Assembly: GCA_049999805.1 (NCBI GenBank)
Contig: JBNGIO010006191.1
Location: 234,578 to 298,577 of the forward strand
DNA: 64,000 nt
Reading direction: 5' to 3'
From: Folioceros fuciformis
Taxonomy: Eukaryota
Made by a program: the position numbers and the translations under genes. Of the stretch, positions 19,588-32,641 are shown one piece after another; position 1 is the first letter of the stretch, and every line of letters starts with the position of its first letter. The notes beneath the pieces were generated by a model. The model was not told the origin of the DNA and ran no database searches. It saw only the letters and a program-made list of their open reading frames with translations.

Positions 19588-20300
19588 AGAGCGGCTTCCA
19601 CCACATGGGATTCAAATGCACCTTTGCTCAAAAAGTAGAGCAGCTTCTACCACATCGAATTCAAACGCACATGTGATGAGAAAGTAGAGCGACTTCTAGC
19701 CTATGGAATTCAAAAGCACCTTTGTCACCTTTTGTCAAAGCAGTGATAAACAATCAAATCACGTTGCCTAGAAAACCATTCCTCAGCACGTTGCCTAGAA
19801 AACCATTCCTCAGCAATCTCCTGATTGACTTCTAGCGTATGAACTGTTCCACAGCAATCTCTGATTGNNNNNNNNNNTATTGACTTCTAGCATATGGAAT
19901 TCAAAAGCATCTTTGTAACCTTTTGTCAAAATAAACAATCACATACGGAATTCAAAAGCACCTTTGTAACCTTTTGTCAAAGCAGTGATAAACAATCAAC
20001 CACATTGCCTAGAGAAAACTTTCCATAGCAATCTCTAAGCAACTTCTAGCGTATGAAATTCAAAAGCACCTTTATCACTTTTTGTCAAAGCAGTGATAAA
20101 CAATCAACCATGTTGCCTAGAGAAACCGTTCCATAGTAATCTCTAAGCCAAAGCATACTCCAATCTCACACCAGTCGACTATATACATCGCCAAAGATCA
20201 CCATGCTCCAAGCTAGAGCATAGAGCATAGAGCATACTTCGATCTCACAACAACAAACCATATGCGCGCCACATAAGATCACATGTTCCAAGCCAGAATA
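19588..20300. repeat. Dispersed minisatellite-containing repeat, copy 1 (contains N gap)
   Basis: ~49-bp units (agaaagtagagcggcttctaccacatggaattcaaatgcacctttg) and longer ~97-bp units. The distal block gccaaagcatactccaatctcacac...atgttccaagcca is shared with 31975-32641. Confidence 0.85.
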
Positions 20301-20653
20301 TAGTCCAAACTCACGTCAGCAAACCAGTGTTACTTACATCTGGGTGGTTAGGATGGGAGGAGGCCGGCAATGACTGGTGGGTAGCAGACGCAAATGCAGG
20401 AGGCGATGTACCGTAGGTCTGGTGGCCTCTCTACCCGTATGGGGTTTCTGCTACCCGTGACCCTGTCTGTGGTGTACAAGCATACATGGGCACACTGAAT
20501 TGTGAGGCATACGCCCACCTGCAACTTTTCTGGTGGAGACCTTGCGTGCAAGAGTAGGCAGTGGTGGACGAGTCAGAGTCTTGGCAAGGACGATGTCTGT
20601 TCTGTTAAAGGAGGCAGATGCATCACTTCTTTGTGAGAAGCCCTTTTTAAGGC

Positions 20654-20779
20654 ATGTCAGACTCTGTAGAAAAGAAAAGACGGAGATACGGACTCATAAA
20701 GAAAAAGCCTGCATATGTCTGACTCTGTAGAAAAGAAAAGACGGAGATACGGACTCATAAAGAAAAAGCCTGCATATGT
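20654..20779. repeat. 61-bp near-perfect tandem duplication downstream of SWEET
   Basis: atgtc(a/t)gactctgtagaaaagaaaagacggagatacggactcataaagaaaaagcctgcat at 20654 and 20715. Confidence 0.9.
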
Positions 20780-20947
20780 TATCAGTTCTTTAAACAGGAA
20801 TGTCCGTGTACTCGTCCACATGACACGGCCCTCTTGCGGCCATGCAAAATGGCGTTGTGTCGGCAAGCCTGGAGATGGATGGCACAGCCAACTGCTAGAC
20901 TGTCTTGTAGTACAGTCACCTGAGGCTAGGTAGCTTAAAATTTAGGT

Positions 20948-22388
20948 CTAAACATGGTCGGGTCCGGGGCCTGGCGCTGCCTGAGATGCCAAGCCGTGGC
21001 GGGGGCTCAGCGGAATGGACACGAAGGTGACGCCCGACTGTTGCTTCGAAGTCTGCATGTGGGCTTGTTTGTTGCTGGCGCTCTTTTCCATCTGGATATA
21101 CGAGCCGTTGGATTTGGACGTGTCTAAAGAATCGCTCGTCACACCGTCGCCTTCGATGGTCAAGGGGACTGCTCTTCGGTAAAAGACGTAAAGACAAAGC
21201 TGCACCACGCCGGAGAGGCAGCCCAGTCCATTGGGGATCTGGGACCAGAAAAAACCAAACCCGAACGAGAATTTCAGTTCAAAAACACTGACCAGTTAAG
21301 TCATCAAGCAATGCATGCAACTGTGAGCATTGCACCAGTAAAACGAAAGGAGCAGTAGCGATGGTTTAGCTTACCGCAATGTAGATGTCCTTGGCGACCA
21401 CGGCGTAGCCACTCCACACGGTGCCGTTGATGAAGACGAAGAGGGACAGGAAAAACGGCATGAATTCTACGCTCCTTGTCCTTATCACCATCCTCTGCGA
21501 TCATGAATGAGCATGGTCCTTCCCGTCAGTCGTGACAGCAGGTTGGAAGTTGAAGCGCGATGGCACGGGCAGACAGCACGTACCATGACTCCCAGCGGCG
21601 CAGCATACATGCTGATGGCGAACACGACGCACAATAAACCGATCACGAGTTTTCTGCTGGAGTAGGGGATCGCGAACACTGTAACCAGGCAAAGAATGGT
21701 GTAGAAGACGACGGTTGCCAGCAGCATTTGGAGAACCTTCACCTGCAACCAGGCACGATGAGTGAAGGAATCCAGGAGTCGAGTCGAGTAGACGGTGGAA
21801 CGAATGCCGGTGAAGCACTTACCCGCTCGTTCCTAGCGCAGTAGGCGAGAAAAATGGAGAGGTAGACCAGTTCGAAGACGACGCCAGCGCCGTTGATGGT
21901 GATGATGAGCAGACCGTTGGGCTTGACGAGGGGAAGACCGTAGAGGATCCATAGCAGGCAATTGAGCAAGGTGCAGACGTAAGGAAGGCCTGAGAAATCT
22001 TGCGTCGTCTTGTTCTTAAAAATTCTCCAGAATGTCGGCCTTAAGAGTCGAAACGAAACAGAATGGATGATTCAGATGCGCCAATGCAGGGTGGACAGCT
22101 ACCAGAACACCTACTTTCCTTGTACTTGCGACAATGGCAGTGCGTGCGGAGCACAGGGAAGGAAATGAGGCCTAGCAGACCTGCTACCACTCCGAGTCCA
22201 ATTCAACATACTTACGCAGGTGACGTGAAGAGAGCGATGGCTGTCATATTTCCTGGATCAGACGATGCACCCGCTCTTGTAAGCATGCATGCAAAGGTTG
22301 TTGTCTTATTCATGCGAAATACTATACCATCAGCCGGAGGCGGCGTAGATTACTGACCAAGAATGCCGAGAAGAGTGAGGAAGTCCAT
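20948..22388 (-). CDS. SWEET: SWEET (MtN3/saliva) sugar transporter, 6 exons
   Basis: MDFLTLLGILG / GNMTAIALFTSPA / PTFWRIFKNKTTQDFSGLPYVCTLLNCLLWILYG...ITINGAG / SMYAAPLGVM / VIRTRSVEFMPFFLS / IPNGLG...QLCLY. Canonical 6-exon plant layout. Confidence 0.95.
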
Positions 22389-24142
22389 GACGTCGCCAGC
22401 AGCTGTGAACACGACGCCGGCAGTTCCAAGCTTGCCTCAAGGGACGGGGATGGGGATGAGATGACAGCAACAGCAGGCTGCTGGCTTGGCAGGCAAGCGA
22501 CCTGCTGATGAGCAGAGCAAGGCGGTGGTTGAAAGCAGTGTGCCGCCGGGAAGAGGTGCACTCGCGCAGAGCAGATTTGCGCACGCGTGCGTGCTTGTGC
22601 AGTTGCAGACTGTTAAGAGTTGGAGAATTGAGCAGGCAGTAGCAGGCAGGAGGGCGGGCGGGTCAGGGTCGTCCGGCCAAAAGTAACACCACACCAATTC
22701 CTCGTGTGCTGGTGCCTAGAGTAGCCACAATGTGTGCCTGTCAGTGCGGCTCAGGCTAGCCCTGAGCCTGAGCTAGAGCCAGAGCCAGAGCCAGAGCCTG
22801 AGCCCCTTGCCAGCAGCCACTGAGCTCGCTGCCCGCTGTGTTCCGCGTGCGGGATCAACAGACACCTGCTCCGGATCCTCTCAAGAGGGCAGATTCTGGA
22901 TGGAGATGGAACACTGATCTACTATGCTGCTCACAGGCAGCCAATGGGCCATGATGTTGTGACGCACCGGTCTCTTATAAGCAGGGCCAGGTTCTTGGTG
23001 CCTTTGCACTCACTCTACGGCTACCGCAGCTACAGAGCTATACTGACAACAGGTAGACGGACGGACGGACGGACGGACGGCCAGGGGGGGCAATGACGTT
23101 CGCGCTCTGTTATCAGCTGGCAATGAGAGGCATTGTCCGTCTTATCATCACGTGACACGAAGTTGGGCTGTGATCCCCCCCACACCTCCCGGTTACCACG
23201 GTCGGATAACGACACCCATCAGAAATGCTGAGTGTGTATGTACATACAGCGGTTTACACAGCGTGGTCTCAGCTCACGTCTCGTCTGTTCAACACAGAAA
23301 GAATAATCTCAACACAGAAAGCACACCTGCCAGCAGCAGCGGGGCGTGGCCAACAGCGCGAGCGTGAAAGCGGCCGGTCGGCAGGGTCGTGGAGTCCATG
23401 CACATGGACCCGCCTTCGCTGCGTCGCGGCATAGAATTCGTGTGACACCCTACCTACCGTCTTGGTACCCTTGTCCCCTCGCCCGGACCCAACCGACTTT
23501 AACCCTTGTCACCGACCAACATAGCCAGGGCGCCCAGGCAGGCATGGTTTCCCATTACGCACCCCGCCTTGTAGCAGCCCAAGGTATCTGCAATCCATGG
23601 CGCTACGTCTCTTCATGTGAGGCATCACCTTCGGGCGTGGATCCCAGATCACCCTACCTGCCCACCTCATCATTGCAAACAAGCTGCTTAACCCAACTTC
23701 CACTACAGGTAAGGAACAACCGAGGGACATCTTTACTTCCTCTCGAGCTACTGTACAAGTCGCAGCCAACCTAGTAGCTAGGAAAATGGAACTTGTAGAC
23801 CATAACAAGGAGGATGCCAAACACATGCGACACCCCCTCCAGGCCAAGAATTGGCGAAAATGCTAACCCGCCCACTACAATAACGAGGCCAGGGTCTGCC
23901 AAGCTCAAATTGCTGCAAAACACACACCAGTACAGCAACCAACATTTGCCACTGTCAAACACGGCGCACACCCACTGCAGCCAGCGCAAACCACTACACA
24001 TATCCAATGTTCCTCAAAAAGATTGTACGCATACTGCATTACGTTGGTGGTGCGCGACTTACACAGCTTGGGTTACACATGCCAACTTGCACCAACCACT
24101 GCGCCTGCGTCACTACTAGTCCTTCCTAACAAATTGCCTTCC

Positions 24143-27100
24143 TCAAGCCCCGTAATCCCCTCTTGCAAAATTTTCTTCAGGGTAGTACACTGCAACCACA
24201 GAGTTCCCTCCGAATTTGCGCCCGTTCAGCATGCTCCTTGCTTTTGCCGCTTCTACTATTTCAGTGTACTCAACAAACACCTGCGGGTTTGCACACAAAA
24301 TACTCACGAGTTAAAAGTTAGGAATATTGAAATGGAGCGTCTGTTGCACGTCGCACGGGTGCCAGCGTTTTGTGCAGTACCTTTCCAACTCCAGGGACAT
24401 CTTCACCCGTCCTGGGCCGAGGTATGACTAGGTTAACAATATTCCCTGGTGACACAACACCACCACGAGCACCATCCAACAAGTAGTTAGCTCAACACAG
24501 CAAACAGAATTGAAACGAAAACACACATAAACACCGATCGCTACCATATTTCCCACACTCTTCCTTCATGTCCTCCAAGATCTCCTCATACTCCTCATCT
24601 TCTCTCAACTCATCAGCAGTTACGACCTGGGCCAACACGAAAATCTCAGTACTTTTCTCCCATACACCGCCGTACTGGGAATGTGCTAAATTTCACAACA
24701 ACATTCTTCACCTGAGTTAAGCACACCACTTTCGTAGCATTTTCAGAAATAGGTGACAGACCATTGCCCATGCCTGCCACCATACCAGGCATTAAACCAG
24801 GCATCCCTGGCATAAGCCCAGGCAAGTTCCCTAGCGGGAGGGCATTTGCTCCACTAGCCTGTAACGCAAGCTTCTGCGGCACAGGATACGAAATAAGAAT
24901 AAAGCTGTACTCAGACCACTGGCTGGTGCTTGCACTAGCTGAATGCTGACCTGCAAGGCAATGCAAGCACCAGATTGATGATTACCTGCAAAGCAATTTG
25001 TTGCTGGGCTTGCGCCAACACGTTCGCTTGATCAGGCTTCGGCTGTCCACTGCTGACATCCAATCACTTTCAGAGCTCAGCCAGAACATAACATGCAAGG
25101 CATCATGACAACCGAAACCTGACACCTACAGCAACCTAGACAACTTATGGCCCCATTCGAAGACACCCATAATAATGCAAAAGACATGCATGACTACATG
25201 TGCAAGTGTTTGCTGTGACCAGTATACCCAAACCAAACAACGTTGCGCTCACGTCCTCCGGCACCTTCAAGAGCTACCGGCAGGTTCTCCAATAACTATG
25301 TTGACCTACTAAGACTGGACCCTGACTTGCATACACATGTGTGAGTTGACATATGCCAACCTCGCAGTGGCACGGCGGACTGTCAAAGTCTTGTCATCCA
25401 TTTTCATGCCATTAAGCGTTGCACAGGCTATGTCCACAACTGAAGGATCCTGCACATTAAGCATGCAAATCACAAGCAGACAGGGAGTAAGATCAAAGCA
25501 TAACCCCACCTGGCTGTCGCCCGACGCACGGTTAAGGTCTTATCACCCATTTTCAAACCATTAAGCGCAGCACAGGCAACATCTGTTACGGACGTCTCCT
25601 GCATGTTTTATCGCAGTTGGGACAGATCCCAAATATAGGTTAGTGCAGTTAAGTTAGAACACAGAGTATCCCTTCAGTCCTAGACACAGTTAACACAGCT
25701 GCTGCTGTGGGAAGCTCCTGTACTACATGGAAATCCAGCAGTCACAATAATGTGACAACGGCTGTTGCCAGCAACCTCAGCCGCCGTCAAGCACCTGATC
25801 AGCTCTTGTTGTATCTATTCATACGCACAAATCCCACATCACACAGGGAAAGCAAGTTGCTACAGTACCTGGTAGACACAAAATCCGTAACCCTTTGAAT
25901 TTCCAGTGTCCCGATCTTTGACAAGGTCGAAACCTCGCAACGGGCTGCAAACAAGAAGGTTATCTATAGTAAGCAACGCAAAAAGTACTTATCCCCTCGC
26001 CTTCTAAACCACTGAACTCAGCCAACGACCTTGTTCCAAAGTCAACTCACCCAAAAGATTCCAACAACTCCTTAATCTGAATCTCCGTTAAATAATATGG
26101 CAGCCCTCCCACAAATATTCGATCTGGGCCATCTGCTCCCCCCGCCGCGCTGCTACAAGAAGTGATAGAATACTTGGGAGCAGGTTAGTAGGCACATACA
26201 GTTCACTGCCGCCATCAGCAAATAACCAGACTACACCTTACTGGAATTCTAATTAAACATGAGAATTGAAATGTACTCACCCAGGTGTCAGGCCGACAGC
26301 AGCAAGATTCAGATGTGCACTGGGCTGACTGGGCCCAAGAGTAGCTGCCATCGATGGATTGTAGTCACTTGGCCTCCTTACCCTCACAGACACCCCCTGT
26401 CCAAAGGGCAAGAACATCTGAGGATGAGAAGGAGCAAGCATGCTGGAAACAATGCTGAAAAAGCCATCAGAGTAACCACCTCAAATATGATGCCATCCAG
26501 AGCCATTGCATTACTTGCTTCTTCTACAGTTCGCATCTCAACAAATGCAAACTTCTTTTCTTGATTGATATATACATTTACCACAGCATCCCCTAAGGCC
26601 AATGCAAGTAGTCAATTTAGGAGAAGAGTCAAGAGGGCAAGTCACACTGAAATACACGGGATCAAAACCACAAACGAGGCTCAACAATTTTGAAGATACC
26701 TGGTCCAGCAGTGTTCCCACCAACAGCCGCCATGACCTGACTGAAAAATGTTGCAATAGTCTGAACAGACAAAGAATCAGCTCGGAGTAGAAGTGACCAT
26801 CGTAACACAGAGTGGAAAAGCTGAAAAGCAATTATGCAAGCTGTAGGTTTTCCTGAAAACGCACCTGCTCGTTTGCCATCGGTGGCAAGCCACCCACATA
26901 AACTCTTCGCGCATGTCTTGTGGCCTACATGACACAGGGTACTCAGTCCGTGTCACATACTATCGATGCAGTTAAGCAGCTGGAGACAATCAAACGACAA
27001 GCCCACCTGCTGCGTCATTGCCTGCGCAGGCATCGCTGGCATTCCCCCAAACTGCAATGTGGTTTCCATCACAACTTTTAAAGCAGCACGGGAAACTCTT

Positions 27101-29153
27101 TTGAAAGCAGGATAAATATAAAACAGTGGCAGCTAATGCAGCTCACAGCAGCCTACGCAAGGGCGAGCGAATAATGCAGCCCCATGTGCAACAGAAACTT
27201 GAGATTCTAAACACTAATTAACTAAGTAGGAGGATACCTGAGTTCCACCGAAAGAAAACATTCCTGGAAACACTCCAGCCATCGGTTGAGACATCCCTGG
27301 TATCTGGCCTGCATTACGACAAGTCCCAATTTAACATACACTTAAGATCCGTTACCATAGATTCTCAGACGCAATACAAATCATTACCAAGAGGTGACAG
27401 GTTGCTGCCGGGATTCATAGCTGCAGTTTGAAGCATCCCTGCTTGCATATTTATCAATGAACCTCAGGAACTTAACTGTCAGCTGACATTCTATATGCAC
27501 AGCACTTTTTGTTCAAAAGCGCTATATAGCGGGTGAAGATAAATATCCACCAACTAATGTGTTTCAGTCCCTCGTTGTACATACAAGCCATTGGATGCAC
27601 GCTCGTGGTTGGGGACAGAAGGCCATTGGGCTCCTGATGCCTTCCGCCCACAAAGCATACAAAGACAACCACAAACGACAACAAACCAGAAAAAGACAAA
27701 CAAACAAGCAAACAGTCTCCTCAGTGCTAGTCCAAATCAAGGACGATAGACCAATCAAGCTAAATTGAACAACTTGAAGTGCTATCTACAATTATGAACA
27801 GGATTCCTCCACATATACTAAAAGCCTATCCACTCCAACACTGACCTTGATAGCCACCATGCATGTGGTAAACCCTAAAGACTAGCGAATTCTGTTCCAA
27901 CTAAAGACATAGGGATAAATTGAAGGAGGATATGATATAAAACGGACCTGGAATAGCAGCTCCTGGAACGACTGTTGCACCTGGTGGAGCCATATCAAAG
28001 CCACTAGTCCTCTTGCTGCAACAGATTGAGAACTTGAGTGAGAATTACAAGCAAAGTGGAAAATTCACCATGGCGACGTCCAGCCTACAACAGACAAGAC
28101 GTACCTTCTCCTATCCCGGGACGGTGACCTCGATCGCGAACGAGACCGGGAGAAGTCACGAGGAGACCGGGATCGGTGTCGGTGTCGCCTGTCTCTCTCT
28201 CGATCATATTCTCGGCTCCGCCTGTAGTACAAAGCGAACACTTCTCAAAACAGGATCCATAAAGAAAAACATCCAAGATGGCCAGGAAAAAGTTGAAAAA
28301 CTTCATGCACACAAAGGTTGTTACATAGAAAAATCAGCTGGTAGATCACCTTTCCCGATCATGACTTCTGTGTCTGTCCGTCCGATGATCCCTTTCAATT
28401 CTGTCACCCCTGTCTCCCCTATCCCGATCTCTGTCATCTCTGTGCCTACGATCCCGCTCTCTTTCCCGGTCCTTATCTCTGCTTTTCTCCCGCTCTCTGT
28501 CCGGCTCACGAGAGGATCGCTGATGATTAAATAAAAAGTCAGCAAAACAACAGCATGCGTCCAAACCAAATACTGTGATACTCACTGCTCCTTAACCGTT
28601 CTTCTTCAAAACTAAGCACAGAAAGGAACAACGGCAAACACAGAAAACCCAATCAGATTCTACCGAGGCGTTGCTTGAGTGCCATTCGCTCAAAATCAAT
28701 GCAAAACTTGAACAAGCAAAACACGGTTCAGCGGAGTGAATCGCAACAAGCAGCCCCACTCCGCACCAAGCGGATGCAAGACTAGAAAGCTAGGTCGCCA
28801 ACCAGCATTAGCGATGACGCCCTTGGCCTAGATCAACCCTAAAGTGCAAAACGACCTAGCAAGCAAGGGTTGTGGGAGATTTCGAGCAACCCGGATGCAC
28901 GACGGAAGCCCAGGCTGCAAATCGCAATGAGGTGCAAAGAGAAGGAGCGAGAAGCGGCAAGCAGCACAGACGGACATCAAACCGGCCACCCTAACACTGA
29001 AAATCTTGGCTATACCTCCCGCTCCCGACCTCCGTTCTCACGCTCCGCGTGCAGCTCGTAAGCCGGCATAGCCCCGTATTCTCCATGGCCGCCCCTAGGG
29101 CCGGGCGAGTTCCCGTCCTCATACTGGCCGCCTCCATCCTCGTGGCCAGCCAT
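24143..29153 (-). CDS. U2AF65: Splicing factor U2AF large subunit (RS domain, RRM1, RRM2, UHM), multi-exon
   Basis: RD/RS-rich N-terminus, TSGFDMAPP, ATRHARRVYVGGLPP, KKFAFVEMRTVEEASNAMALDGI, DRIFVGGLPYY, GYGFCVYQ, ATKVVCLTQ, YEEILEDMKEECGKYG, NGRKFGGNSVVAVYYPEENF...*. Confidence 0.96.
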
Positions 29154-29518
29154 CGCTAACAGCCTCGCCGTGGCTGCGTGTTTCGTCGGACTTAGCCAAG
29201 ATGTGTCGAGAGTGCTGCACAAGAGCAGGATAAACCCTCCCTCGAGGGACACCAAGGGCTCGTACAGAGAGTTTATACAACACAAGCCAAGCTTGGCTTG
29301 GTTTCCGGTTTGATTTATCATTCAGCAAAACTTTATTACCAACCTGGGTAGCCAGCTATCTAGGGCTTCGTCCCTAAAACTGGAACGTTCCCCTTTCCAG
29401 GGAAAGGATGGACTATCTAACCGAGAGAAGGAAAACGGGGGGAGATTAGGTACAATCTCAGCCGAGCTAGCTGCAGTGCAGAGTGCAGATGCGAAAAGGC
29501 ACCGACATCCCCTCAATG

Positions 29519-30876
29519 TTAATCCGCGTCTTCGCAGTCTTCAGTTTCAGGAACTGCTTGCAGAGGTCCATCTTCTGATTGATACGAAAAGGTGCTGTCG
29601 ATCATACGAACCTGAGGTTCCATGGTGTTGATCATGTTCCAGTCCTCGTCGGATAAGGACCAGTTGAGGACATCGAAGTTGGATGCAATTCGGTCGGGTC
29701 TGAGACTGCGAGGTAGCACACTGGTTCCTCGTTGTACCCCCCAACGCAAGATCACCTGCCCACAGGTAGAGGACAGACGTGTCAAAGAGTGGTGGGGAGC
29801 ATGAAGCAGCGTTTCTTCGGTTAAAGGCATGAGCAGTTTGCAAAGACGGGATCTCCTACCTGAGCAGGAGTCCTTTTTAAACGGTCTGCGACCTCAGCAA
29901 CAACGGAAGTCCGAAGCATGGGTGCATGTACAGAGCAGGATCGGGAGAAGGTGATGGCGTTAGAAGAGGAAGGCTCAGGCTCATCTTCTCCAGACATGTA
30001 GCCGGCGGTAGTCTCCAGATTGCTGCCAGGAATTCCAAGGGGAGTGTGAGCCGAAACATGGATGCCCTGTGACTGGCAGTAGTCGATCAATTCGTCCTGC
30101 CTCCAATACGGATGCAACTCAACCTGCCACGGTCAGGCAAAGACATCCCATGAGCAATAAGCTGACTCACAGCAGGCGAGGCGAGGCGAGGCGAGCCATT
30201 ACGACGGCAAGGGTGGTGATGATAACTCCAACACATGAATCGGACCATGTCATCCAGACGATGCAGGAAAAATTAAAATTAAAACGTTTGTTAGAAGAAT
30301 GCGCACCTGATTCACTGCCGGAACCACGTTTGCAACGCTAAGTATCTCTTCCACTTGAGAGATGGAGAAGTTGCTGAGTCCGATAGCCCTGGCCACCCCC
30401 TTCTCCACCAAACCCTCCATGGCAAGCCAAGTTTCCTCCAGCCGCCGAGACGGTTTGATCATCAACTCCCCTCCCGCCTTCCTGCTAGGAGGATCCGTGG
30501 CATCCCCTATGGACGGCAGGACCGGCCAGTGCAGCAGGTAGAGGTCCAAGTACTCGAGCCCTAGATTCTTGAGAGAAATCTTGACAGAGTCTTCGACTCT
30601 TTTAGGTGCATTGGTGGTGCACCAGAGCTTGGAGGTGACGAACACTTCCTCCCGCCGCAGCTTGGGCTTGGGGCCAGAGAAGGCATCACGAAGGGCCTGG
30701 CCGACCTCCACCTCGTTCCCATACAGATGCGCGCAATCCACATGCCGGTAGCCGACATCCAAGGCCGTGGCCACAGCAGCCCTGCAAGAGGCACCGTCAG
30801 CCTGCCAGGTCCCCAGTCCCACAGCTGGAATTAAGGCTCCCGTGTTGAGCACAAAGTAATCCTTGTCCCGATCCAT
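29519..30876 (-). CDS. Aldo-keto reductase (AKR4-like), 3 exons
   Basis: [83 protein letters not shown]. Catalytic D-Y-K-H tetrad present. Confidence 0.93.
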
Positions 30877-31595
30877 GGCCCTCCCTCCCGCAACGGCCCA
30901 CCCCAATCCAATGCGATAAATAAATAAAATGTGGCGCAGTTGCTGCTGCTCGCGACCGATGGCACCTTCCCGTTGTTGTTGCTGCAGCTGGTCCCCGCAT
31001 CCGCACGGGCTGCTCCTGCTCCTACTGCTGCTCGCTCACTCCGCGTCCGATGTAGGGTTAGCGATCACAGCACGCGTGTGTGTTGCTGCCTGCACCATTT
31101 TCCATTTTCCAAGATCTCGCCTCCCCCAACCTCCGCATACAGTGTGGGCAGGCAGGCACGGCTCCCACGCTGCTCCCGGCACACAGCGCCTGGTGAAAAG
31201 GGCAAGGCAAGGCCAGGCAAGGCAAGTCTTGGAAGCCGAAGTAGGCTTGTGTGGTTTTGCGGTAGGCAGGAGGGAAGCAAGGGCTGGTAACGATGCAATT
31301 GCGCCTATGTTACTCACTGCAGTTTGCAGCTGCCCCTGCCGCGGCCGCTGTGACTCCAGCTGCAGGCGACGGGAGAAGAAAGTGGGCCAGCAGCCGGGCT
31401 AAGCCGACATTTGCTGGGAACCTTCTCCGGCATGGCCGTTGATCATGGAAATTCGGGTGGCGCAGGGTCCCAGAGCTTCGCATCCGACAGCAACACGCGC
31501 ACACCACTGCGCTGCATTTGCGTTTAACCGCCGCCATCTGGACCCATCTGCTATTTTAGACCCCCCCTTCTCCCACCGATGGCTTGGGTTCCCCG

Positions 31596-31673
31596 CGGAT
31601 GGGATGGGATGGGATGGGATGGGATGGGATGGGATGGGATGGGATGGGATGGGATGGGATGGGATGGGATGGG
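31596..31673. repeat. (GGGAT)n microsatellite, about 15 units
   Basis: Direct reading of the sequence. Confidence 0.97.
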
Positions 31674-31974
31674 CCTGACTCGGTACCTACGTACAAAGCA
31701 TGCATGCCAAACGTACACATCGTCAGCCGTTGCTTCCAGCACATCAATTTTGCTCTAATGTGAGCTCTCCTGCACCGTTGTTTCCTTTGACACATACATA
31801 CGATGATTGCCAAACCTTGTTTATTTGTCATTTGTTAGTATTAGGAGTAGAGGTGGATCATTTTGCTGTAACCACACGGATGTGGTTGGGCAGTAGATTC
31901 CACAATTTGAAATGTGGGGTTGGGCAGTAGATTCCACAATTTGAAATGTGGCTTAGGGAATAGACGAGCCTTTG

Positions 31975-32641
31975 GTGAAGAAAGTAGAGCAGTTTCTTGA
32001 ACATGGAATTCAAAGCAACCTTCATTGAGAAAGTACAGCGGCTTCTAGCACATGAAATTCAAAGGCACTTTCATTCAAATGCACATTCATTCAGAAAGTA
32101 GAGTGGCTTCTAGCACATGGAATTCAAATGCACCTTCGTTGAGAAAGTAGAGCGGCTTCTNNNNNNNNNNTTGAGAAAGTAGAGCGGCTTCTACCACATG
32201 GAATTCAAATGCACCTTTGTTCAGAAAGTAGAGCAGCTTCCAGTACATGGAATTCGAATGCACCTTTGTTCAAAAAGTAGAGCAGCTTCTACCACATGGA
32301 ATTCAAAAGCACCTTTGTCACCTTTTGTCAAAACAGTGATAAACAATCAACCACGTTGCCTAGAGAAACCGTTCCACAACAATCTCTGATCGACTTCTAG
32401 CATATGGAATTCNNNNNNNNNNTGTCACCTTTTGTCAAAGCAGTGATAAACAATCAACCACGTTGCCTAGAGAAACCGTTCCATAGTAATCTCTAAGCCA
32501 AAGCATACTCCAATCTCACACCCGTCGACTATATGCATCGCCAAAGATCAGCATGCTCCAAGCTCTCTGGAGCATACTTCGATCTCACAACAACAAACCA
32601 TATGCGCGCCACATAAGATCATATGTTCCAAGCCAAAATAT
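31975..32641. repeat. Dispersed minisatellite-containing repeat, copy 2 (two N gaps)
   Basis: Same 49-bp unit (starts at 32174 and 32223) and same distal block as 19588-20300, in the same orientation. Confidence 0.85.

Follow-up and report, generated by a model that had tools for sequence, protein, structure and literature searches.

Does a hornwort carry two interchangeable versions of one exon in a core splicing factor, and are both of them maintained? The question arises from a 64,000-nucleotide (nt) stretch of the Folioceros fuciformis genome (assembly GCA_049999805.1, contig JBNGIO010006191.1, positions 234,578 to 298,577), referred to below as the window and numbered from its first letter. 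In this window the gene for U2AF65, the large subunit of the U2AF heterodimer, contains two adjacent homologous exons, here called A and B, that encode the same part of RRM2, the second of its RNA recognition motifs. Plants are considered to have few mutually exclusive exons. We argue that A and B are probably an ancient, tandem-duplicated and mutually exclusive pair in which both copies have been kept as coding sequence – with B serving as the default exon in the hornwort and A as a minor one.

Two homologous exons occupy the same place in the U2AF65 reading frame

An earlier note, made from the letters of the window alone, had reported the positions of the two exons, their common length of 89 nt, their cag acceptors and AG/gt donors, a gap of 60 nt between them, differences at 7 of 29 residues and the absence of stops. 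All of these were confirmed when the exons were re-read and translated (Table 1; a slash marks an exon boundary and lower case the intron). Exon A is bounded by gcag/GAG...CAG/gtgggg and exon B by gcag/GAT...GAG/gttggc, and their translations share 22 of the 29 residues. A repeat finder recovered the copies as a 105-nt direct repeat with 72% nucleotide identity at a spacing of 149 nt. In tblastn searches each exon peptide matched the other exon with an E value of ~2e-11, and the rest of the 64-kb window gave values of ~1 or worse. The arrangement expected of mutually exclusive tandem-duplicated exons – adjacent homologous exons of equal length and phase – is present.

An exon length of 89 nt leaves a remainder on division by 3, so the frame survives only when one of the two exons is included and the other is left out. 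Joined by coordinates, the A-only and B-only forms both read in frame into SGQPKPDQ... (SGQPKPDQANVLAQAQQQIALQ), and the forms with A+B, with neither exon or with A+spacer+B all hit a stop codon within 5–13 codons. Double inclusion and double skipping are unproductive by frame, a second property of mutually exclusive exons, and the frame shift that the earlier note had predicted for both-or-neither transcripts is borne out by the stops that these joins reach. Its proposed outer junction ends needed one correction: the acceptor at 25049 was recovered, but the upstream donor had been placed at about 25868, which is the first position of the intron, the exon ending at 25869.

The host gene, as identified by homology, is the U2AF large-subunit gene. 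An RS-rich open reading frame lies at 28591-28349, and the terminal open reading frame ends in ...ENFARGDYGA and a stop codon. With tblastn, 14 colinear exon blocks matched a transcript-derived protein of the hornwort Nothoceros aenigmaticus (P0123), mostly at 79-100% identity and at lower values where a block crosses an intron; the exon blocks showed 53-100% identity to the U2AF65 of Riccia (P0125). P0123 in turn matches human U2AF65 structures over RRM1-RRM2 (E 8e-54) and over the C-terminal U2AF homology motif (UHM; E 3e-26), and it gives a Pfam RRM_1 match with E 1.5e-35. The U2AF65 architecture of an N-terminal RS region, two RRMs and a C-terminal UHM was found in a close homologue and, by tblastn, in the window.

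Table 1. Structure of the U2AF65 gene around the alternative exons, in window positions
Feature	Position	Strand	Remarks
Exon A, 89 nt	25598-25510	minus	canonical land-plant type; translation ETSVTDVACAALNGLKMGDKTLTVRRATA
Exon B, 89 nt	25449-25361	minus	bryophyte-specific type; translation DPSVVDIACATLNGMKMDDKTLTVRRATA
Spacer intron between A and B, 60 nt	25509-25450	minus	in-frame stop if retained
Constitutive upstream exon, ...PLRGFDLVKDRDTGNSKGYGFCVYQ	25869-25944	minus	RRM2 up to RNP1; donor CAG/gtactg
Upstream intron, 270 nt	25599-25868	minus	from junction contigs
Downstream intron, 311 nt	25050-25360	minus	from junction 25049 to 25361
Constitutive downstream exon, (S)GQPKPDQANVLAQAQQQIALQ	24986-25049	minus	NAGNAG alternative acceptor at 25052
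U2AF65 (U2AF large subunit) gene	24146-28591 at least	minus	RS-domain exon to stop codon

The pair recurs across bryophytes

To place the exons among plants, a 40-residue window translation around B was compared with a protein collection, giving 11 matches with E<=10 among 19 candidates. B-type exons identical to the window exon at all 29 residues occur in Nothoceros aenigmaticus, Marchantia polymorpha and Riccia fluitans, and 28 of the 29 residues are kept in Physcomitrium patens (two genes), Ceratodon purpureus and several moss-like fragments. The protein search around A found A-type exons in Riccia sorocarpa, Calypogeia fissa and vascular plants generally. The top matches of that search (P0003-P0006 and P0008) were considered as double exons and rejected: they are fused tandem gene models of angiosperms.

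Between the U2AF65 proteins of Riccia fluitans (B) and R. sorocarpa (A) the overall identity is 94%, and their local differences are concentrated in the alternative exon. In P. patens, a UniProt sequence of type B (P0129) and the RefSeq isoform X3 of type A (P0143) come from the same gene; both are 545 amino acids long, and their nine differences all fall within residues 354-379. P0145 and P0146 show the same A/B isoform pattern. Moss transcript contigs also exist in both kinds, B in L001 and A in L007; the latter is a full-length A-type contig (= P0139) that is 95% identical to the Ceratodon B-type protein.

Genomic copies came from 41 loci on metagenome contigs. One moss-like locus (L009) consists of the upstream exon, a 280-nt intron, A, a 75-nt spacer, B, a 341-nt intron and the downstream exon, a layout that nearly matches that of the hornwort (280/75/341 nt against 270/60/311 nt). 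In another hornwort, a Logan fragment (P0007) holds exon A, a diverged spacer of 65 nt by our own count and exon B out of frame on one contig, and its exon A keeps 28 of 29 residues. Six moss-like loci (L026, L029 and L032-L035) have an intact A followed, ~55 nt on, by a decayed relic of B that has neither an acceptor nor an open frame. Single exons are found in other moss-like paralogues and in loci with a seed-plant-type exon. A third P. patens-type U2AF65 paralogue (L011-L014, L022; P0173) likewise has just one exon, whose character is mixed (DPSVMDIACAALNGLKMGDRTLTVRRASA), and the flanks of L011-L014 and L022 show no further exon copy.

As typed by their residues, A and B exons are both found among hornworts, liverworts and mosses; this genome is not alone in having the pair.

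Both copies are constrained as protein and as nucleotides

We compared the exons by the proportions of nonsynonymous (pN) and synonymous (pS) differences. Between A and B, pS is 0.81 (saturated) and pN 0.126 in the window, and the corresponding values are 0.77 and 0.17 in L009. The dN/dS comparison that the earlier note had proposed therefore comes out with nonsynonymous change far below synonymous change. Between hornwort and moss, pN is 0.023 for B and 0.07-0.11 for A, with a pS of 0.35-0.52 for hornwort A against moss A. Purifying selection acts on both copies, as it does in mutually exclusive tandem exons.

The synonymous sites of the pair are themselves unusually conserved. Hornwort–moss pS is 0.36 for B and 0.35 for A, against 0.80-0.81 pooled over 12 constitutive exon blocks (Fisher p ~5e-5 and ~4e-5, respectively). 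Conservation among close relatives extends into the spacer. Relative to organism C (X6), the window differs at a single position over the 238 nt of A+spacer+B. The flanking exons have 12 differences over 193 nt (p=8e-4), and the upstream intron has 26 substitutions over 269 nt (p=9e-7); for the spacer alone the count is 0 of 60, against the same 26 of 269 (p=0.007). Two stretches of the upstream intron, 25599-25640 and 25673-25717, have no listed difference from the relatives.

On these comparisons both exons are under protein-level constraint plus additional constraint at the nucleotide level – a combination typical of regulated alternative exons.

B is the default exon in hornwort samples

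Splicing was followed in three runs of this or close hornworts (X1, X2 and X6). None of them is recorded as RNA; we take them to contain mRNA because spliced junction contigs with GT..AG ends are present. The runs were read as Logan contigs, from which rare variants are dropped.

The junction from the upstream donor to B's acceptor (25868/9 to 25448/9) reached depths of 73 in X1, 366 in X2 and 37 in X6, and that from B's donor to the downstream exon (25361 to 25049) depths of 88, 452 and 34. The junction from the upstream donor to A's acceptor (25868/9 to 25597/8) was found in X6 at a depth of 30.2 and was not seen in X1 or X2, and no junction from A's donor to 25049 or 25449 was seen in any of the three. 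Junction 25944 to 26051, on the other side of the upstream exon, is present in all of them. Both of B's sites are used in 3/3 RNA-like runs, A's acceptor in 1/3 and A's donor in 0/3, in contigs where rare forms can be missed. The earlier note had proposed mapping just these junctions: those from the upstream donor to 25449 and to 25598 and from 25361 to 25049 were found, but none of the three RNA-like runs yielded 25510 to 25049.

At the downstream exon, the NAGNAG acceptor (25049-25055, minus strand) is also used at its alternative position: X6 contains the junction 25052 to 25361 at a depth of 11.4 against 33.8, which adds one serine (..ATASSGQPKP..). The same double-serine form appears in transcript contigs of other plants (L005 and L006).

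Transcripts that contain A were seen in two forms. X6 has a single unbranched contig, 25601-25423 (depth 37.4), that spans A and the spacer and runs into B. Because this contig is unbranched and the downstream intron is without cover in X6, the molecules that use A's acceptor consist of the upstream exon, A+spacer+B and the downstream exon, with a stop in the spacer. In addition, the whole intron 25868-25450, with A and the spacer inside it, is retained in part of the transcripts of all three runs, as seen in colinear contigs that cover 25423-25897 in X1 (depth 21.5) and X2 (63.7) and 25572-25897 in X6 (24.2). The depth of these retention contigs is roughly 15-60% of that of the B junction contigs. 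X1, X2 and X6 give no cover over the neighbouring intron 25945-26050, and the downstream intron is retained only in X1 (contig 25022-25390, depth 12.7). The A-containing intron (25450-25868) behaves like a detained or regulated intron.

The only single-inclusion form seen in hornworts is B-only, both in the runs and in the Nothoceros transcript P0123. B is the default, productive exon in the hornwort samples, and A is seen only in unproductive forms.

Several of these observations weigh against reading A and B as a pair of which both members are used. No contig in the three RNA-like runs joins A's donor (25510) to 25049 or 25449, which is weak negative evidence because Logan contigs drop rare variants. 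The unbranched X6 contig carries A straight through the spacer into B. Hornwort fragments with A joined to SGQPKPDQ were absent from the 120 matches listed of 1112 with at least 71 residues, and from the 19 sequences examined of 23 short matches (22-70 residues). The P. patens isoforms, finally, are database models. A productive A-only mRNA presumably exists in the hornwort as well. The earlier note's description of the pair as an old, selectively maintained switch is well supported by the occurrence of the pair across bryophytes, by the P. patens isoforms and by dN << dS, and sits less well with the hornwort runs, in which no junction from A's donor was seen.

Alternative explanations for exon A

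We considered whether hornwort A might be mainly regulatory: a weak acceptor and intron retention would yield stop-containing mRNA and so tune the output of U2AF65, possibly through feedback by U2AF. This account is rather unlikely as a replacement for the pair, though it can coexist with it. It fits the two A-containing forms that were seen – A+spacer+B in X6, and retention of intron 25868-25450 in X1, X2 and X6 – since both of them stop early while the neighbouring intron 25945-26050 is without cover in the same runs. It also fits the unusual conservation of the spacer and intron flanks and the pyrimidine-poor acceptor of A (U fraction 0.18, against 0.45 for B). The conservation between hornwort A and moss A is of the coding type, however, with the low pN and higher pS given above. 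In three hornwort taxa A has an open frame, and 28/29 residues persist even next to a spacer of diverged length and sequence; mosses have A-only mRNAs or isoforms. A role in regulation alone is disfavoured because codon-periodic constraint is not what a purely regulatory element would preserve. The abundance of stop-containing forms nevertheless suggests that the locus also tunes U2AF65 output, which is compatible with a mutually exclusive pair.

It is very improbable that one of the two exons is a dead duplicate – a pseudo-exon left intact by chance beside a constitutive partner. B alone is fully spliced in the hornwort runs and B has been lost in some moss paralogues, as this account would have it, but unused copies decay: the B relics of L026, L029 and L032-L035 have lost their acceptor and frame. 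These relics show the fate of an unused copy, and an intact hornwort A is therefore hard to explain as a dead one. Over an estimated hundreds of millions of years hornwort A has kept its frame and its splice sites, and it agrees with liverwort A at 27-28 of 29 residues; among close relatives it differs at one of its 89 nt, compared with ~9.7% of the adjacent intron.

The chance that the tandem copy is an assembly artefact – the outcome that the earlier note had itself named as fatal – or a recent private duplication or a product of gene conversion is negligible: in a DNA-like run of a related organism (X16) one 25.9-kb contig shows the whole region in the same order (24905-25955, ~90% identity), RNA-like contigs of X1, X2 and X6 cover both exons and span A, spacer and B, the same arrangement occurs in the moss-like L009 and the hornwort fragment P0007, and the synonymous divergence of A and B is saturated.

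How one exon might be chosen

B is the exon chosen by default in the hornwort, and A is a minor and probably regulated choice. The U fraction at positions -25 to -4 is 0.45 for B's acceptor and 0.18 for A's, a weak pyrimidine tract; a default role for B fits because B's acceptor is the more U-rich.

Inspection by eye gave a candidate branch point for B, cttAc, with its A at 25488, at a distance of 22 nt from the donor of A and of 38 nt from the acceptor of B. L009 has a candidate, ctcAc, at a similar place, and these branch-point candidates lie 22-25 nt from A's donor. The spacer measures 60 nt here, 65 nt in the other hornwort and 75 nt in the moss contig. Given a spacer of 60-75 nt and a candidate branch point ~22 nt from A's donor, direct splicing of A to B is probably blocked sterically. 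Any mRNA with both exons, with neither or with A+spacer+B would, because of its early stop codon, be removed by nonsense-mediated decay or give a truncated protein.

Competing RNA structures were considered as a further means of exclusion and rejected, there being no exceptional fold and no pairing common to the hornwort and the moss contig – a weak test, as it involves two species. Local folds of A-spacer-B are unexceptional (z -0.86 and +0.33). Hornwort duplex scores exceed those of shuffles (z -3.9 and -3.3), but the shuffles were crude mononucleotide ones, the duplexes have unrealistically long loops, and they are absent in the moss contig. The inverted repeats I1 and I4 are short, and the intronic arm of I4 carries four substitutions in close relatives. 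No Rfam family was found in 20000-32000.

The alternative segment in the RRM2 fold

Secondary-structure positions were taken from an alignment to human U2AF65 and from PMC4786784. The alternative exon corresponds to RRM_1 profile positions ~48-69 of RRM2 and aligns with a 30-residue segment of the human protein. Placed in this way, each of the two exons supplies the final third of RRM2, from helix alpha-2 through the C-terminal beta-strand to the beginning of the C-terminal extension.

The human counterpart of this segment touches the 5' nucleotides of the polypyrimidine tract, according to excerpts of PMC4786784; the backbone of K329 binds the second nucleotide, and G338 and K340 bind the third. 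Counted on the alignment, the Gly/Asp difference between the exons (MGDK against MDDK) lies three residues ahead of the position that matches human K329. The two RRM2 variants may differ in RNA binding, possibly in their preference for polypyrimidine tracts, as the earlier note suggested.

Age of the pair

Judged from its distribution, the pair goes back at least to the ancestor that hornworts, liverworts and mosses share. The comparison of orthologous loci that the earlier note had called for yields the pair in these three lineages and, in the alga Coleochaete scutata, a single intermediate exon. The Coleochaete transcript (P0055) agrees with B at Val5, Ile7 and Met15 and with A at Ala11 and Gly18. 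Methionine at exon position 15 (...LNGM...) is also usual in animal U2AF65, and A's Thr5 and Leu15 are common to ferns, lycophytes and seed plants. A representative search with P0055 returned two likely algal sequences (P0172 and P0182). With one alga and two or three sites, these patterns hint that B has retained ancestral states and that the states A has in common with vascular plants are derived, which would put the duplication before the land-plant radiation.

A bolder proposal is that the pair is older than the split between bryophytes and vascular plants, that vascular plants lost B, and that the locus is a self-referential switch in which U2AF activity chooses its own RRM2 variant through the weak acceptor of A and the strong acceptor of B, thereby resetting the choice of 3' splice sites across bryophyte genomes. 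We regard this combination as distinctly unlikely. If it is true, the A/B choice would alter, within RRM2, the beta-strand and the turn with which the 5' end of the pyrimidine tract is read.

Relation to known exon pairs

Vertebrates have a duplicated exon pair in the small subunit, as the earlier note pointed out: exons 3 and Ab of U2AF1 (U2AF35), which give the isoforms U2AF35a and U2AF35b (PMC5224494, in excerpt, here and for the statements on U2AF1 that follow). Like the pair described here, these are tandem homologous exons in a subunit of the U2AF heterodimer, with either/or inclusion and two isoforms. Transcripts with both U2AF1 exons contain stop codons and are removed by nonsense-mediated decay, and the exon choice is tied to the organisation of the branch point and pyrimidine tract. 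The differences are equally clear. Our pair lies in the large subunit, in RRM2 rather than in the zinc-finger/UHM part of U2AF35, and in another kingdom; because subunit, domain and kingdom all differ, we consider the U2AF65 pair to be of independent origin. The U2AF1 choice has identified regulators in the stem-loop ESL, FUBP1/2 and SRSF3, and the intervening intron of U2AF65 is, unlike that of U2AF1, very short (60-75 nt).

Three other classes of alternative exons bear comparison. Pairs with a short donor-to-branch-point distance resemble the present one in that distance and in equal length and phase, but here the branch point is a guess from sequence and the introns are those of plants. The docking-site/selector-site clusters of insects and human ATE1 (excerpts of PMC6071210 and PMC7797038) share with it a cluster of homologous exons and conserved flanking intron, but no conserved pairing was found in the hornwort and the moss contig. 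Poison exons of splicing-factor genes resemble the locus in their abundant stop-containing isoforms and in the high nucleotide conservation of exons and flanks. Unlike them, A is a full, codon-constrained copy of a coding exon that is used productively in mosses.

A literature search, which did not cover Figure S7 of PMC12027700, found no published description of a plant U2AF65 exon pair. Section 2.7 of that paper notes alternative splicing of bryophyte U2AF65B genes, citing the figure in question, and makes no mention of the exon pair. Like PMC8635922, it is a survey of the gene family in which bryophytes are covered. The terms 'mutually exclusive' and 'duplicated exon' are absent from the available portion of PMC8635922, in which the longest isoform per locus was used, and U2AF is not mentioned in the available portion of PMC13642808, on splicing in Riccia fluitans. 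The earlier note knew of no description of such a pair for a plant U2AF65. The literature search agrees, but both P. patens isoforms are already present in RefSeq and UniProt.

Other features of the gene and its surroundings

A small exon of the same gene, QFGGMPAMPAQAMTQQ (27007-27054, minus strand), matches a segment of 15 residues, FGGLPGMPAQAMTQQ, that some P. patens isoforms contain and others lack (for example P0127 and P0128), and is possibly a conserved cassette exon. The U2AF65 gene lies between two other genes on the minus strand, one of the aldo/keto reductase family (29522-31035; Pfam E 1e-33) and one with an MtN3/SWEET sugar-transporter domain (~20951-22071; Pfam E 2e-17). Several copies of a short repeated element adjoin N runs at ~31844-32346 and 19646-19938; its translation contains ..KGDKGAFEFHVVEAALL.., and it is probably a small transposable element. 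A simple repeat, (PSHPI)n, is read in two frames at ~31560-31700 on the minus strand.

Significance

U2AF65 is the reader of the polypyrimidine tract at almost all 3' splice sites. A conserved choice between A and B would give three bryophyte lineages two versions of this core 3' splice-site reader, a choice that vascular plants seem to be without. The pair would be among the oldest and best-behaved mutually exclusive exons of plants, with strong constraint at synonymous sites. It is directly testable in Physcomitrium and Marchantia, in which knock-outs of single exons are routine, and it would run parallel to the independent pair in vertebrate U2AF1.

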